Shown: positions 58,958-64,000, numbered from the stretch's first letter. The stretch: DNA of 64,000 nucleotides from an uncultured Acidobacteriota bacterium (GCA_963843575.1 CAWJKZ010000021.1:1-64000); one strand, 5' to 3'. Notes: generated by a model not told the origin, from the letters alone. Made by a program: numbers and translations.

Positions 58958-59112
58958 GCTTCCCCCTGAGATGCCGCCACGTGTACCGCACTTACCGTTC
59001 TGATTTCAATGTTTTTGTCGGTCGGATCCCAAAGGGGGGGCGGTGGATTTCCGGATCCGATGATCGGCGGCAGTGTGTTATCATTGCGGTTTTTCAAGGA
59101 GTGGAATCGGCT

Positions 59113-60950
<1,838 letters not shown>

Positions 60951-61101
60951 ACGTGCTCCTGCGATCGCCACGGGGCGGGCCCGCCCCTCACCGGGTCGAC
61001 TTGTTATATAGTGGGAATTACTTTGGGCACAATGGATATTGTGGGCGCTCGACCGCCCGCGCACATCCGGCCCGCCCGGCGCGGCCGGCCGCAACAAGTC
61101 T

Positions 61102-61130
61102 TCGACATATGGCGCGGCCGCCGCTATAAT
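61102..61130 (+). promoter_or_regulatory. Sigma70-type promoter for the DoxX-apbE unit
   Basis: TCGACA-17 nt-TATAAT. Confidence 0.65.
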
Positions 61131-61264
61131 CGCCGCCATGCAAAGCCCCGAGCCGTCTGCCGGCATGGAGCAGGTCGCCGGGGCGGTTCACAACGCACGG
61201 GAATACTCCTCGACGTTGCTGTCGCAGTGACGACGGGAAGTCATCATCATTCAAAGAGGTCTAT

Positions 61265-62812
61265 ATGGCGGAGACGACGGGCCGCGTGCTCACAAACACT
61301 CAAAAGGCAATCCTGACGATACTCCGGATTGCGATCGGGTGGCACTTCCTTTACGAGGGGGTTGCCAAGCTGTTCACCCCCGGCTGGAGCGCCGCACCCT
61401 ACCTGCAGACATCCACCTGGATTTTCTCGGATTTCTTCCGCTGGATTGCCTCGACGCCCTGGGCCCTGAAGGCGACGGACCTGTTCAATATCTGGGGCCT
61501 GATGCTGATCGGGGTCGGGCTCATGCTCGGAGTGGCGACCCGGGTTGTGAGCCTGTTCGGAATCGCGCTCCTGATGATGTACTACCTGGCGCACCCGCCC
61601 CTTATCGGCGCGGATTGGCGCCTCCCCGCCGAAGGCCACTACTTCATCGTGAACAAGAACCTGGTCGAGCTCCTCGCCCTCTCCCTTTTTGCCGTGTTTC
61701 CGACGCAGGCTTTCGCCGGCCTGGACCGGCTCTTCGCGGGCCTGCTGCGGCGACCGAAGCCGGCCGGATCCCCGGAATCCGCCTCCGACGCGAGAGCCCT
61801 GTCGCGCCGTGAACTCGTCGGCAACCTTGCCGCCGTGCCGGTGCTGGGGGCCTTCGCGTACGGCGCCTACAAGAAGAGCGATTTCGAAAGAGTCCACGCC
61901 ATCACCGGGGCCACCATCACCCTCCAGGAGGCGGCTCTGAAAGACCTGAAGGGCGAGCTCCCGGCCGGGACGGTCGGCAACCTCCAGATGACTCGGCTCA
62001 TTCTCGGCTGCAACCTGATCGGCGGGTGGGCGCACTCGCGGGATCTCCTGTATGTCTCCTCGCTGTTCAAGGCCTACAACACCGAGCGCAAGGTGTTCGA
62101 GACGATCGAGCTGGCCGAGAAGGCCGGCATCACAATGATGCAGCTCGTGACCGGGCAGTACCCGATGTTTCTGAAGTACACCAAGCTCGTGTCGAACAAG
62201 ATGCAGACGATGTGCCAGGTGTATCCGACCGAAAAGGACATGACGACCGACATAGACAAGGCGATCGACAGCGGGGCGACGACGCTCTATGTGCAGGGCG
62301 CATACGCCGAGCGCTTCGTGAAGGCCGGCAGAATGGATCTGCTCGGCCGCAGCCTGGATTACATGAAGAAGCAGGGTTTTGTCTCCGGCATCGGGGCGCA
62401 TTCGATCGAGGTGCCGATTGCGGTCGAGAAGGCCGGCCTCAACCCGGACTACTACGTGAAGACGATGCACCACGACCGCTACTGGTCCGCGCACCCGCGC
62501 GACAACCGCCAGGAGTGGTCCATCGACGGCAACCGCTCCGAGGATCACAACGGTTTTCACGACAACATGTTCGACCTCTTCCCAGAGCGCACGATCGAGT
62601 TCATGGCCACCGTGCAGAAACCGTGGGTGGCCTTCAAGGTGCTCGCCGGCGGGGCGATCCCCCCCCGCGACGGCTTCCAGTATGCCTTCGACAACGGCGC
62701 CGACTTCATCTGCGTCGGCATGTTCGATTTTCAGATCGTGGAGGATGTCAACATCACGCTCGAGGCGCTGTCGAAGTGCACGGCAAGGCGCACGCGTCCG
62801 TGGCTCGCTTAG
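61265..62812 (+). CDS. DoxX membrane domain fused to an AKR-like domain, with internal twin-arginine and TGAT motifs
   Basis: LRIAIGWHFLYEG...NKNLVE (DoxX), SRRELV plus hydrophobic helix, HAITGAT, GNLQMTRLILGCN, PWVAFKVLAGG. Confidence 0.8.
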   Translation: MAETTGRVLTNTQKAILTILRIAIGWHFLYEGVAKLFTPGWSAAPYLQTSTWIFSDFFRWIASTPWALKATDLFNIWGLMLIGVGLMLGVATRVVSLFGIALLMMYYLAHPPLIGADWRLPAEGHYFIVNKNLVELLALSLFAVFPTQAFAGLDRLFAGLLRRPKPAGSPESASDARALSRRELVGNLAAVPVLGAFAYGAYKKSDFERVHAITGATITLQEAALKDLKGELPAGTVGNLQMTRLILGCNLIGGWAHSRDLLYVSSLFKAYNTERKVFETIELAEKAGITMMQLVTGQYPMFLKYTKLVSNKMQTMCQVYPTEKDMTTDIDKAIDSGATTLYVQGAYAERFVKAGRMDLLGRSLDYMKKQGFVSGIGAHSIEVPIAVEKAGLNPDYYVKTMHHDRYWSAHPRDNRQEWSIDGNRSEDHNGFHDNMFDLFPERTIEFMATVQKPWVAFKVLAGGAIPPRDGFQYAFDNGADFICVGMFDFQIVEDVNITLEALSKCTARRTRPWLA

Positions 62813-62813
62813 T

Positions 62814-62905
62814 ACTGATGTTCACAGATACGCTGACATTTTTTTCAGGACGCGGATGAGCGCGGATCCCCACGGATCGACCTGGCGACAGGACGCGGCC
62901 GATCC
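62814..62905. repeat. Partial copy of the 8139-8344 MITE-like element (matches the reverse complement of its right part)
   Basis: ACTGATGTTCACAGATACGCTGACATTTTTTTCAGGACGCGGATGAGCGCGGATCCCCACGGATCGACCTGGCGACAGG aligns with few mismatches. Confidence 0.8.
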
Positions 62906-62930
62906 GGGTGATGCTTTGCAGCGCGCCGTG

Positions 62931-63965
62931 ATGTTGCTGGCCACGGCCTGCGCGCTGGCGACGGCCGCCTGTGCCCTGGGGCCGTCTGCGCCGGTGAGCG
63001 AGTCGTTCACGTCGATGGGGACGATCGCCTCGGTCTCAGTCTCCGCGGAGTACCGGGAAGACCTCGCTTCTCTCACCCAGACCATCAAGCTCGCCTTCCG
63101 GCAGCTCGAGGACCGGTTCACCACCTACCAGCCCGACAGCGAAATCTCGCAGCTTGGACGCTCCGCCGGCGCCCCGGTTGCCGTGTCTGAAGATACGGCG
63201 CGTATCCTCGGGCTGTCGAAACACTTCGGTGACCTGACGGGGGGGGCCTTCGATGTAACGGTCGCCCCGTTGGTGAGGCTCTGGGGCTTCGGGGTGCGTC
63301 CCCCGGCCAACCCGCCCCAGGCCGAGGAAATCCGGGAGCAGCTGCGCCTGGTCGATTACCGACGGATTGCGTTGGGCCCGCGGACGGCCTCCCTGCCCGC
63401 CGGCATGAGCGTCGACCTAGGAGCCATCGGGAAAGGCTACGCCGTCGATCGGGGATTCGAATTGCTCGGCCGTACCCGCGTAAAGGCCGCGATGCTGGAT
63501 CTCGGAGGCAACATCCGGGTCCTCGGCAGGCCCGGGACCGCGGAAGAGTGGACGATCGGGGTGCGCGACCCCTTCGACCGGAGCAGGCTGGTCGGGAAAC
63601 TCCGTTTGCCGGATGGGATGGCAGTGGCTACCTCCGGTAACTACGAGCGCTATGTCGATCTCGGCGGCCGGCGCTACGCGCACATCATCGATCCCCGCAC
63701 CGGCACTCCGGTCGCGGGGATGGCGGGCGTCACCGTAATCGCACCCGACGCCACCACTACCGATGCGCTCTCCACTGGTTTGTTCGTGCTCGGGATCGAG
63801 GTCGGCACGAAGGCACTACGACGCGTCCCGGGGGCTGCGGCCCTGTTCATCCCCGACCGCGAACCCGTTGAGCTCTGGTTGACGCCCGGGATGGAACAGT
63901 TGTTCCAGCCGGTTCCCGACTGCGCGCCGGCGGTGCGGCACACGAGTACGAATGCCTCCAGGTAG
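62931..63965 (+). CDS. apbE: FAD:protein FMN transferase (lipoprotein); start position uncertain
   Basis: LATAAC lipobox-like, MGT, SEIS, GAFDVTVAPLV.LWGF, DLGAIGKGYAVD, ATSGNYERY, HIIDPRTG, DALST. Confidence 0.92.
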   Translation: MLLATACALATAACALGPSAPVSESFTSMGTIASVSVSAEYREDLASLTQTIKLAFRQLEDRFTTYQPDSEISQLGRSAGAPVAVSEDTARILGLSKHFGDLTGGAFDVTVAPLVRLWGFGVRPPANPPQAEEIREQLRLVDYRRIALGPRTASLPAGMSVDLGAIGKGYAVDRGFELLGRTRVKAAMLDLGGNIRVLGRPGTAEEWTIGVRDPFDRSRLVGKLRLPDGMAVATSGNYERYVDLGGRRYAHIIDPRTGTPVAGMAGVTVIAPDATTTDALSTGLFVLGIEVGTKALRRVPGAAALFIPDREPVELWLTPGMEQLFQPVPDCAPAVRHTSTNASR

Positions 63966-64000
63966 GCGCGAGGCAGCTCGATTCACCGCAGCGCACGACC

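Follow-up and report, generated by a model that had tools for sequence, protein, structure and literature searches.

The data assembled here outline a two-gene unit through which an uncultured Acidobacteriota bacterium may couple extracytoplasmic chemistry to its respiratory chain. The unit lies in a stretch of 64,000 nucleotides (GCA_963843575.1, CAWJKZ010000021.1:1-64000; hereafter the window) and comprises a gene for a fusion protein and, downstream on the same strand, apbE, which encodes an FAD:protein FMN transferase. In one polypeptide the fusion protein combines a DoxX membrane module, a twin arginine (RR) with a fifth transmembrane (TM) helix, an ApbE-type flavin-attachment motif and a TIM barrel whose nearest fold is that of the aldo-keto reductases (AKRs). 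On balance, we lean towards reading it as a flavinylated, quinone-linked oxidoreductase of the periplasm, which together with apbE would form a self-contained extracytoplasmic redox module. A sequence-only reading of this DNA had named an N-terminal DoxX domain of about four TM helices, the residues SRRELV with a hydrophobic helix from position 61802, the residues VHAITGAT, an AKR-like barrel and the apbE gene. Each of these parts is present, the motif proper being HAITGAT with V210 just before it (61892-61894), and it is on the character of the RR-helix and of the barrel that the present account departs from the earlier one.

Membrane module, twin arginine and topology

DoxX is the sole family above its cut-off in a Pfam scan of the fusion protein at E<=1, and NCBIfam gives no match. 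Beyond the core recognised by Pfam (Table 1), the membrane module with its four helices takes in roughly residues 11-145. An AlphaFold2 model computed with 67 aligned relatives (mean pLDDT 89.4, pTM 0.72) has membrane helices at residues 11-37, 55-88, 92-109 and 131-144, then an Arg/Lys/Pro-rich loop, a helix at 190-214 that follows S180-R181-R182, and the eight-stranded barrel at 234-505 with a beta-hairpin before it. Both R181 and R182 occur in every one of 21 aligned relatives and reach at least 90% conservation in a set of 67 sequences; the fifth helix (TM5) begins three residues past them. Mean Kyte-Doolittle values over the 21 sequences, a different scale from the delta-G(app) used in published work on proteins that need both the Sec and the twin-arginine translocation (Tat) pathways, are 1.01 for TM5 and 0.91, 2.0, 1.32 and 1.38 for TM1 to TM4. 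In all 21, one to three Lys or Arg residues occur within nine residues after TM5, position 204 being Lys in 19 and Arg in two.

The ancestry of the RR-helix can be read from shorter relatives. A scan of a genome collection confirmed 618 related stretches, and the locus counts below, unless a sample of the phylum is named, rest on the best 80 of these, of which 46 match at full length, 8 from a start at residues 109-195 (intermediate) and 26 over the barrel only. Stand-alone barrel proteins of about 330 residues carry an N-terminal SRRxFLK-like sequence and then a short hydrophobic stretch, one of them scoring above the cut-off for Pfam TAT_signal. Among the 26 barrel-only loci, a script recognises a Tat-type signal in 17, one more (L034) was recognised by eye, seven have none (L022, L023, L025 and L028-L031) and one is cut by a contig end; a signal-less paralogue of 267 residues also occurs in the window's genome (L098 4711-5517). 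The RR of the stand-alone Tat signals aligns in the same columns as R181-R182. Because the stand-alone barrels bear N-terminal twin-arginine signal peptides, the RR-helix of the fusion is, as judged from these homologues, a retained Tat signal, a property that the sequence-only reading had missed while locating the arginines and the helix correctly. TatC is present in the window's genome.

The motif and the barrel are placed outside the cytoplasm, as had been proposed earlier, by the count of four TM helices plus RR/TM5, by the homology just described and by the distribution of charge, with seven Lys or Arg residues in the loop before TM5 vs none or one in the loops predicted to be periplasmic. 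On this prediction the barrel is very probably periplasmic. It is fairly likely that its export depends on Tat, and the fusion as a whole is probably inserted by Sec plus Tat. It has been reported that the charges before the last helix, its modest hydrophobicity and the basic residues after it determine how a protein passes from Sec to Tat (Tooke et al., 2017, PMC5449189; accessible part of the text, here and below). The opposite topology would leave the barrel in the cytoplasm, as a membrane-anchored AKR-like enzyme working on free NAD(P)H, and the motif beyond the reach of a periplasmic ApbE. The signal-less barrel relatives (7 of 26 loci and the 267-residue paralogue), which are presumably cytoplasmic, would fit such an arrangement, as would the two lysines directly after TM5, since a simple positive-inside reading favours a cytoplasmic C-terminal side. 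However, basic residues past a Tat-dependent helix are a published hallmark of dual Sec/Tat proteins (PMC5449189), the RR-helix is homologous to the Tat signals of stand-alone barrels, the charges before TM5, including the invariant RR, far outnumber those of the predicted periplasmic loops, and an N-terminus inside followed by four DoxX helices and a fifth helix puts the C-terminus outside. We regard the inverted arrangement as very improbable.

Flavin-attachment motif and linkage to apbE

ApbE recognises the motif D-x-x-[S/T]-G-A-[S/T] and attaches FMN to its last residue, and a tag of seven residues is sufficient for the enzyme (PMC12052999; accessible part of the text, here and below). The sequence H-A-I-T-G-A-T of the fusion fits this motif at six of seven positions, with His for Asp, and T217 rather than T214 is the predicted FMN acceptor, because the published rule puts the acceptor last. 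In the AlphaFold2 model, pLDDT falls below 50 internally only at residues 211-219, the motif and two further residues, and the motif therefore lies in a flexible linker. Among 21 relatives (54-91% identity) there is no exception to A212, G215 and A216; position 214 holds Thr in 20 and Ser in one, and position 217 Thr in 19 and Ser in two, while the linker columns that flank the motif vary freely. In a wider set of 139 full-length family proteins, biased to close relatives, strict [ST]GA[ST] stands at the aligned place in 129, a one-residue variant in seven and neither in three. Conservation of TGAT, a check proposed with the sequence-only reading, is thus borne out, and so is its remark on the missing Asp: the residue six before the acceptor (n=136) is His in 92, Asn in 19, Asp in 19, Glu in three, Gln in two and Tyr in one, and the His runs through the window's acidobacterial clade. 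Most Bacteroidota orthologues bear a fully canonical D-x-x-S-G-A-T.

At the 46 full-length loci, 39 have the strict motif; the other seven read TSAT, SSAT (twice), TGPT, SGST, SGGT and SSA-. The motif is absent from all 32 loci that lack DoxX, which are the 26 barrel-only loci and six complete RR-anchored ones, and the other two intermediate loci proved to be full-length genes cut by contig ends, both with SGAT. The site therefore goes with the DoxX fusion. Among DoxX-less stand-alone proteins outside these 32 loci, P0172 (DGKSGAT) and P0150 (DGISSAT) are exceptions. In 20,000 shuffles of the protein, [ST]GA[ST] fell within residues 204-230 in 0.26% and anywhere in 5%. A second match in the fusion, S336-G-A-T339 (62270-62281), falls within the folded barrel, where strand 4 begins; its S/T columns are unconserved, and it was rejected as a flavin site and attributed to chance. 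Cleavage by signal peptidase at V-H-A|I, which would release the barrel, was likewise rejected, since Asp-type orthologues do not retain the A-x-A-like pattern.

The protein encoded by the window's apbE matches PF02424 over the entire profile (273.5 bits, E 2.5e-81, positions 1-266 of 266) and has 13 solved ApbE/Ftp FMN-transferase relatives, the best being 7esa (E 1.5e-48). Its N-terminus is hydrophobic, with two Cys residues in imperfect lipobox-like contexts (…LLATACALATAAC…) as read by eye. Only 43 nucleotides separate the stop codon of the fusion gene from the apbE start on the same strand, and no terminator-like site was found between the two genes. Since the upstream neighbour, a short-chain dehydrogenase gene, is divergent and the downstream neighbour, an ECF-type sigma factor gene, is convergent, the unit consists of two genes. 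An operon is the best explanation of this arrangement, held with the same slight leaning as the redox-module reading of which it forms part.

Linkage to apbE, also suggested earlier as a check, recurs in relatives. In a tblastn search with the window's ApbE as query (E<=1e-5), an ApbE gene lies within 6 kb of 5 of the 46 full-length loci and of none of the 8 intermediate or 26 barrel-only loci; Pfam confirms ApbE in three of the five. These five loci are exactly the five with a His-type motif (L003, L007, L009, L012 and L014), and in each of them the fusion is immediately followed by apbE on the same strand. At L014 (5986-10351, another acidobacterium), two tandem fusion genes, 53% identical to the window's and both with HAVTGAT, are followed by apbE with an overlap of 8 nucleotides. 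Ten further full-length loci from a sample of the phylum include two with adjacent apbE, L105 (motif DGMTTAT, apbE on the same strand) and L109 (DAVSSAT, apbE convergent). In a tree of 11 ApbE sequences, the six His-type neighbours group together (support 92/95), as do the other two neighbours (100/99), and all eight stand apart, weakly (76/81), from the three other ApbEs of the window's genome. Where a genome has the fusion without an adjacent apbE, ApbE is found elsewhere in five of five, and in the phylum sample ApbE occurs in 9 of 9 family-bearing genomes vs 253 of 401 overall, a tally that takes in one unpublished genome (G024) and is no statistical test, the genomes being related.

The source genome itself points the same way. 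Known clients of ApbE are FMN_bind, NqrB/RnfD, DUF2271 and DUF3570 (Meheust et al., 2021, PMC8238504; accessible part of the text, here and below). The source assembly, which is 88% complete, contains four complete ApbE genes and a fragment; searches of it gave no FMN_bind, NqrB/RnfD or DUF2271, and the search for DUF3570 was uninformative, as its controls gave no signal. Four ApbE genes without three of the known client domains call for non-canonical clients. It could nevertheless be argued that the fusion is not flavinylated at all, A-x-[ST]-G-A-[ST] being a structural or hinge element, the barrel a non-redox periplasmic enzyme or binding domain on a DoxX anchor, and ApbE in the service of other proteins. 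The motif does lie outside the recognised client domains, Asp is missing throughout the His-type clade, 49 of 56 family loci have no apbE nearby, and the barrel matches no oxidoreductase family by sequence. This explanation is hard to reconcile with the conservation of just those residues that ApbE needs, with Ser/Thr swaps at both hydroxyl positions between variable flanks. The canonical D-x-x-S-G-A-T of the Bacteroidota orthologues, the lack of the motif from all 32 DoxX-less loci, the recurrent same-strand apbE adjacency, which includes a fusion-fusion-apbE operon, and the four ApbE genes in a genome that yielded no match to three of the four known client domains also count against it. The absence of flavinylation is therefore distinctly improbable, and flavinylation of the fusion protein is likely.

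The barrel and a proposed path of electrons

A model of the barrel alone has a pLDDT of 94.4 and a pTM of 0.93. In a structure search independent of Foldseek, the best match was PA4992 of Pseudomonas aeruginosa, a putative AKR (4exa_A of PDB 4exa/4exb; Z 20.7, root-mean-square deviation 2.8 A over 226 residues, 16% identity), followed by L-galactose dehydrogenase (9w6y; Z 19.3). Matches at Z >=16 are almost all AKRs, with ThiG, IGPS and other barrels from Z 15.8 down, and an AKR is also the best Foldseek match (E 3.7e-7). With the AKRs the barrel shares a (beta/alpha)8 architecture with an N-terminal hairpin, and it shows a weak alignment to an AKR in the Gly-rich segment that follows strand 7. 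The AKR-like barrel of the sequence-only reading thus holds as a fold; as a family assignment it does not. Identity to these AKRs is 9-16%, neither the fusion nor 10 stand-alone relatives have a match to PF00248 (Aldo_ket_red) at E<=1, and these 10 match no Pfam family. A profile of 29 barrel sequences found nothing significant among all PDB sequences (best E 0.031, over 26 residues common to IMPDH-like proteins), and hhalign of the barrel against an AKR from locus L016 gave a probability of 5.8%. Neighbours in the ESM Atlas are unnamed Planctomycetota clusters and one cluster auto-named 'NADH:flavin oxidoreductase' (score 0.93), without a common Pfam family, and serve as a lead only.

In 29-67 diverse members the conserved residues are R244, N250, H257, R259, D260, Y271, E285, H379, D395, K399, H402, Y406, K458, D480, D488 and Q490, together with the C-terminal R-x-R-P-W, part of a conserved tail R-x-R-P-W-x-A. 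The AKR tetrad Asp-Tyr-Lys-His occupies the ends of strands 2, 3 and 4, and the ends of these strands in the barrel, mapped by secondary structure, hold unconserved residues. By this mapping the catalytic tetrad is not evident; instead, H257, R259-D260, H379, K399, H402, K458 and D488 are conserved. A further difference is that AKRs use free cytoplasmic NADPH, whereas the barrel of the fusion is predicted to be exported. On the models at hand it appears to be AKR-like in fold only. We nonetheless consider a redox function moderately likely, and a sugar, alcohol or carbonyl compound is a possible substrate given the fold.

The model that we favour proposes that Sec inserts the four DoxX helices of the fusion, after which the twin arginine, the weakly hydrophobic TM5 and the lysines that follow it would pass the already folded barrel to Tat. 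Because it would have folded in the cytoplasm, the barrel would probably be loaded with any cofactor on export, and it would land in the periplasm tethered to DoxX. A periplasmic ApbE could then act on T217, which sits in the flexible stretch joining TM5 to the barrel, and transfer to it the FMN part of FAD. Held at the membrane surface, the covalent flavin may shuttle electrons between the active site of the barrel and quinone or quinol at DoxX, so that the net activity would be that of a substrate:quinone (or, with the flow reversed, a quinol:substrate) oxidoreductase. Coupling to quinone through DoxX has, in our estimate, an even chance. Complex prediction for the DoxX part (residues 1-203) against linker and barrel (205-515) scored 0.00 in two runs, which speaks neither for nor against an interface.

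A bolder form of this model treats the FMN on T217 as a swinging arm on a flexible tether, comparable to a lipoyl or phosphopantetheinyl group. The Tat-exported barrel would hold a nicotinamide tightly and oxidise a periplasmic sugar or alcohol, and the flavin would reach into the pocket of the barrel, take hydride from the bound NAD(P)H and then reduce quinone in one-electron steps at DoxX. In this full form the proposal is unlikely, and a bound NAD(P) in the barrel is pure conjecture. The glucose-fructose oxidoreductase of Zymomonas is, among others, a Tat-exported dehydrogenase with tightly bound NAD(P); it has a Rossmann fold and neither a flavin nor a membrane anchor. As in that enzyme, the fusion barrel would be a nicotinamide-type dehydrogenase fold exported by Tat in the folded state, which would explain how an AKR-like enzyme could do without free NAD(P)H; unlike it, the fusion has a TIM barrel, a flavin site and a membrane anchor.

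It is also conceivable that the protein is flavinylated and that the FMN is the catalytic cofactor of the barrel itself, the linker folding back so as to put the flavin on top of the TIM barrel, its place in FMN-dependent barrels like old yellow enzyme and glycolate oxidase, with DoxX as a quinone site or a mere anchor. Such a protein would be the natural counterpart of engineered 'flavin-fixing'. FMN-dependent TIM barrels (mandelate dehydrogenase, glycolate oxidase and mandelate oxidase) do appear among the Foldseek matches, and the auto-named ESM Atlas cluster would agree with them. Many barrels bind phosphate after strands 7 and 8, where the sequence of the fusion reads as Gly-rich (FKVLAGGAI and FICVGMFDF). 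In addition, Thr-linked FMN can be engineered into existing flavoproteins (PMC12052999). However, the N-terminal hairpin, which in an AKR-type barrel is at the bottom, comes after the motif, and T217, 17 residues before strand 1, would have a long detour to the catalytic face. Foldseek ranks AKRs above the FMN barrels (best E 3.7e-7 vs 1.5e-4 or weaker), the top 50 of the independent structure search contain no such FMN barrel, and barrel-only relatives, both Tat-exported and cytoplasmic, lack the attachment site, so that the barrel is functional without a tethered flavin. A cofactor role of this kind is consequently quite unlikely, and the shuttle between barrel and DoxX remains the arrangement that we favour.

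Several observations count against that arrangement and temper the weight we give it. Ten of the 139 full-length relatives depart from the strict motif (TSAT, SGST, TGPT or none), and the fusion protein has no match to FMN_bind, NqrB/RnfD, DUF2271 or DUF3570 (Pfam, E<=1). The quinone role of DoxX proteins rests, to our knowledge, on few characterised members, and by Pfam, NCBIfam, PDB profile or hhalign the barrel does not significantly resemble an oxidoreductase in sequence. Some relatives of the barrel have no flavin site, and a number of them (7 of 26 loci, without a signal) seem to be cytoplasmic; the chemistry of the barrel therefore needs no tethered flavin in itself. Within the membrane part, TM1 is less hydrophobic than TM5. 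The adjacency of apbE is limited to Acidobacteriota (7 of 56 loci, plus the window), in lineages that are related, so that the cases do not count as independent; a paralogue of the fusion in the same genome (L097 5221-7358, G000:C7; full length, 51% identity, HAVTSAS) has no apbE on its contig of 16.6 kb. On the favourable side, a contig of a run recorded as metatranscriptomic spans 62790-62953 with no mismatch and thus joins the last 23 nucleotides of the fusion open reading frame (ORF), the spacer and 98 nucleotides of apbE, and a second contig of the same run spans 61508-61759 with one mismatch; this is a weak hint of co-transcription, as such contigs may stem from DNA and the bridging one has only 23 nucleotides, less than an arm of 31, inside the fusion ORF. 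The public runs each contain at most 12% of the sampled words, and the parts they leave uncovered carry no meaning. As a last point against the arrangement, the Asp of the motif, here His, has been termed 'strictly conserved', and tolerance of its loss is known from one protein, a fumarate reductase in which D-to-A had a minor effect and G-to-A and A-to-V left about 50% flavinylation (PMC12052999).

Family, source genome and relation to known systems

The family is large. Of 8000 candidates scored in a word-indexed search, 6602 are relatives at E<=1e-3, and most of the 120 relatives listed have 500-540 residues, 95-100% query cover and 54-100% identity. An exhaustive search of 50%-identity representatives gave 2493 at E<=1e-3 and 244 at E<=1e-30. 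The best 80 stretches of the genome scan come from Acidobacteriota, Bacteroidota, Planctomycetota, Lentisphaerota, Hydrogenedentota and others, and in the window's own phylum the fusion family occurs at E<=1e-60 in 9 of 401 genomes. Across the gene neighbourhoods of 18 related loci no conserved neighbour besides apbE was found. Glycan-degrading neighbours (GH43, GH88, GH92, DUF2961, heparinase-like and Gfo/Idh/MocA) were considered as a clue to the substrate and set aside as too inconsistent, and a split doxX beside barrel-only genes was likewise discarded, the small upstream ORFs being HAD hydrolases (L018, L042) or of no family (L071). At an Asp-type acidobacterial locus (L055 7614-9368), a 584-residue protein with a nitroreductase domain is encoded directly downstream of the fusion on the same strand.

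Table 1. Features of the two-gene unit, in coordinates of the window
Feature	Position	Strand	Basis or remark
Sigma-70-like promoter match, TCGACA-17-TATAAT	61102..61130	+	About 135 nucleotides 5' of the fusion start codon; 11/12 consensus positions, consensus match only
Fusion gene, 515 residues (DoxX, RR and TM5, flavinylation motif, TIM barrel)	61265..62812	+	ORF
DoxX domain core, residues 17-105	61313..61579	+	Pfam PF07681, E 2.8e-7, 31.5 bits vs cut-off 23.6
Twin arginine R181-R182, in a cytoplasmic loop (predicted) with 7 K/R	61805..61810	+	S180 starts at 61802
Fifth TM helix, residues 185-203, then K203-K204	61817..61873	+	Read as retained Tat signal h-region / signal anchor
ApbE-type flavinylation motif H-A-I-T-G-A-T, residues 211-217; predicted FMN acceptor T217 (61913-61915)	61895..61915	+	Conservation and motif rule
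TIM barrel, residues 234-515, uncharacterised family, AKR nearest fold	61964..62809	+	Structure model
apbE, FAD:protein FMN transferase, 369 residues	62856..63965	+	Pfam PF02424 ApbE

Promoter-like sites number two in 60900-64000, vs 0.6 expected from shuffles. The ORF of the short-chain dehydrogenase upstream (59895-61166, minus strand) extends about 150 residues past its Pfam domain, the adh_short_C2 match ending at profile position 182 of 236; the additional part has an odd composition and overlaps a PpiC/SurA-like gene (58981-60216, plus strand), and a frameshift or assembly error is possible.

Elsewhere in the source genome, an operon at L096 4404-7343 (G000:C24:341403-344342) consists of apbE, a doxX of 180 residues and a Tat-signal Gfo/Idh/MocA dehydrogenase of 423 residues, and the DoxX encoded there shares 38% identity with residues 8-186 of the fusion. 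The ApbE of this operon has no obvious signal sequence at its annotated start, and its Gfo/Idh/MocA protein has a low-complexity loop ending in S-S-A-S that might be a loose flavinylation site. At L099 5142-9347 (G000:C15), an ApbE gene is followed by that of a 521-residue protein in which a NapC/NirT-type multihaem cytochrome is fused to an FGE-sulfatase domain and then by that of a 450-residue Tat-signal Gfo/Idh/MocA protein, and at L100 3501-5806 (G000:C9) an ApbE gene comes 9 nucleotides after that of a 446-residue DUF362 protein with a Tat-like RR signal. Beside the L097 paralogue lies a divergent ORF of 140 residues in which three CxxCH haem-binding motifs were seen by eye.

In relation to known systems, the closest parallel is provided by flavinylated extracytoplasmic electron transfer, for which NapH-like, MsrQ-like, PepSY-like, DsbD and Nqr/Rnf-like systems have been described (Meheust et al., 2021, PMC8238504). 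As there, the present unit has an ApbE that is putatively extracytoplasmic, a [S/T]GA[S/T]-type candidate acceptor on a segment predicted to lie outside, a proposed membrane link to an electron pool and clustering with apbE. It differs in that its membrane part is DoxX, which is among neither the five classes nor the ten systems defined in the accessible Methods, in that the predicted acceptor lies in a short unstructured linker outside the four client domains, with His for Asp, and in that membrane part, flavin site and catalytic domain form one polypeptide. The accessible text of PMC8238504, large supplementary tables aside, does not mention DoxX, and a 2024 follow-up preprint of the flavinylation survey mentions neither aldo, barrel, Gfo nor Tat. 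In the literature searched, most subscription journals lying outside it, no paper was found on DoxX and ApbE together, and nothing related on DoxX and twin-arginine together. The linker resembles the Flavin-tag, in which a bare seven-residue motif in a flexible region serves ApbE (Tong et al., 2021, cited in PMC12052999; accessible part), although the tag is engineered and the site in the fusion would be natural, internal and beside a membrane helix.

As regards biogenesis, the dual Sec/Tat proteins comprise actinobacterial Rieske proteins, the haem-molybdenum cofactor protein Sco3746 and polyferredoxins, each of the latter two with five TM domains, and YkuE-like proteins with four (PMC5449189). 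The fusion is like them in its Sec-type N-terminal helices, the RR before the last helix, the basic residues after it and a globular C-terminal domain predicted to be extracytoplasmic, as well as in having shorter soluble relatives with ordinary Tat signals; with five TM domains it equals Sco3746. A DoxX module and an AKR-like barrel are new to this set, to which a post-export cofactor step by ApbE would be added, and the accessible part of PMC5449189 mentions neither DoxX nor flavin. The fusion belongs to Pfam DoxX and falls in the same DoxX subgroup as the DoxX of the apbE-doxX-Gfo/Idh/MocA operons. DoxD/DoxA is a thiosulfate:quinone oxidoreductase, and the role proposed for the DoxX part of the fusion is that of a haem-free membrane subunit exchanging electrons with quinones; unlike DoxD/DoxA, the fusion has no sulfur-enzyme partner and is joined to a predicted Tat-exported barrel and a flavin site. 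Compared with the ApbE-based extracytoplasmic electron transfer already known, the novelty would lie in the membrane partner, in the kind of site that serves as client and in how the protein is probably put into the membrane and exported.

The fusion protein thus suggests a new bacterial link between extracytoplasmic chemistry and the respiratory chain. To date, client domains number four, and the uncharacterised membrane partners described fall into five classes (PMC8238504). If the favoured reading is true, DoxX, a very widespread family whose function is poorly understood, would be a new membrane partner, while a bare motif in the linker of a catalytic fusion protein would be a new kind of client. 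The proteins whose insertion takes Sec as well as Tat would be joined by one more family, a testable function would be gained for a large group of uncharacterised proteins (more than 6,600 relatives), and 'orphan' ApbE genes in genomes in which known client domains went undetected, such as the source genome with its four, would be explained. Were the swinging-arm proposal also true, DoxX would be the sixth class of membrane partner for ApbE-flavinylated proteins, and the His-type motif would have co-inherited, possibly specialised, ApbE enzymes. The fusion and the apbE-doxX-Tat-Gfo/Idh/MocA operons would in that case together represent a general and undescribed 'DoxX-flavin' route that lets dehydrogenases of the nicotinamide type operate beyond the cytoplasm and pass electrons to the respiratory chain.

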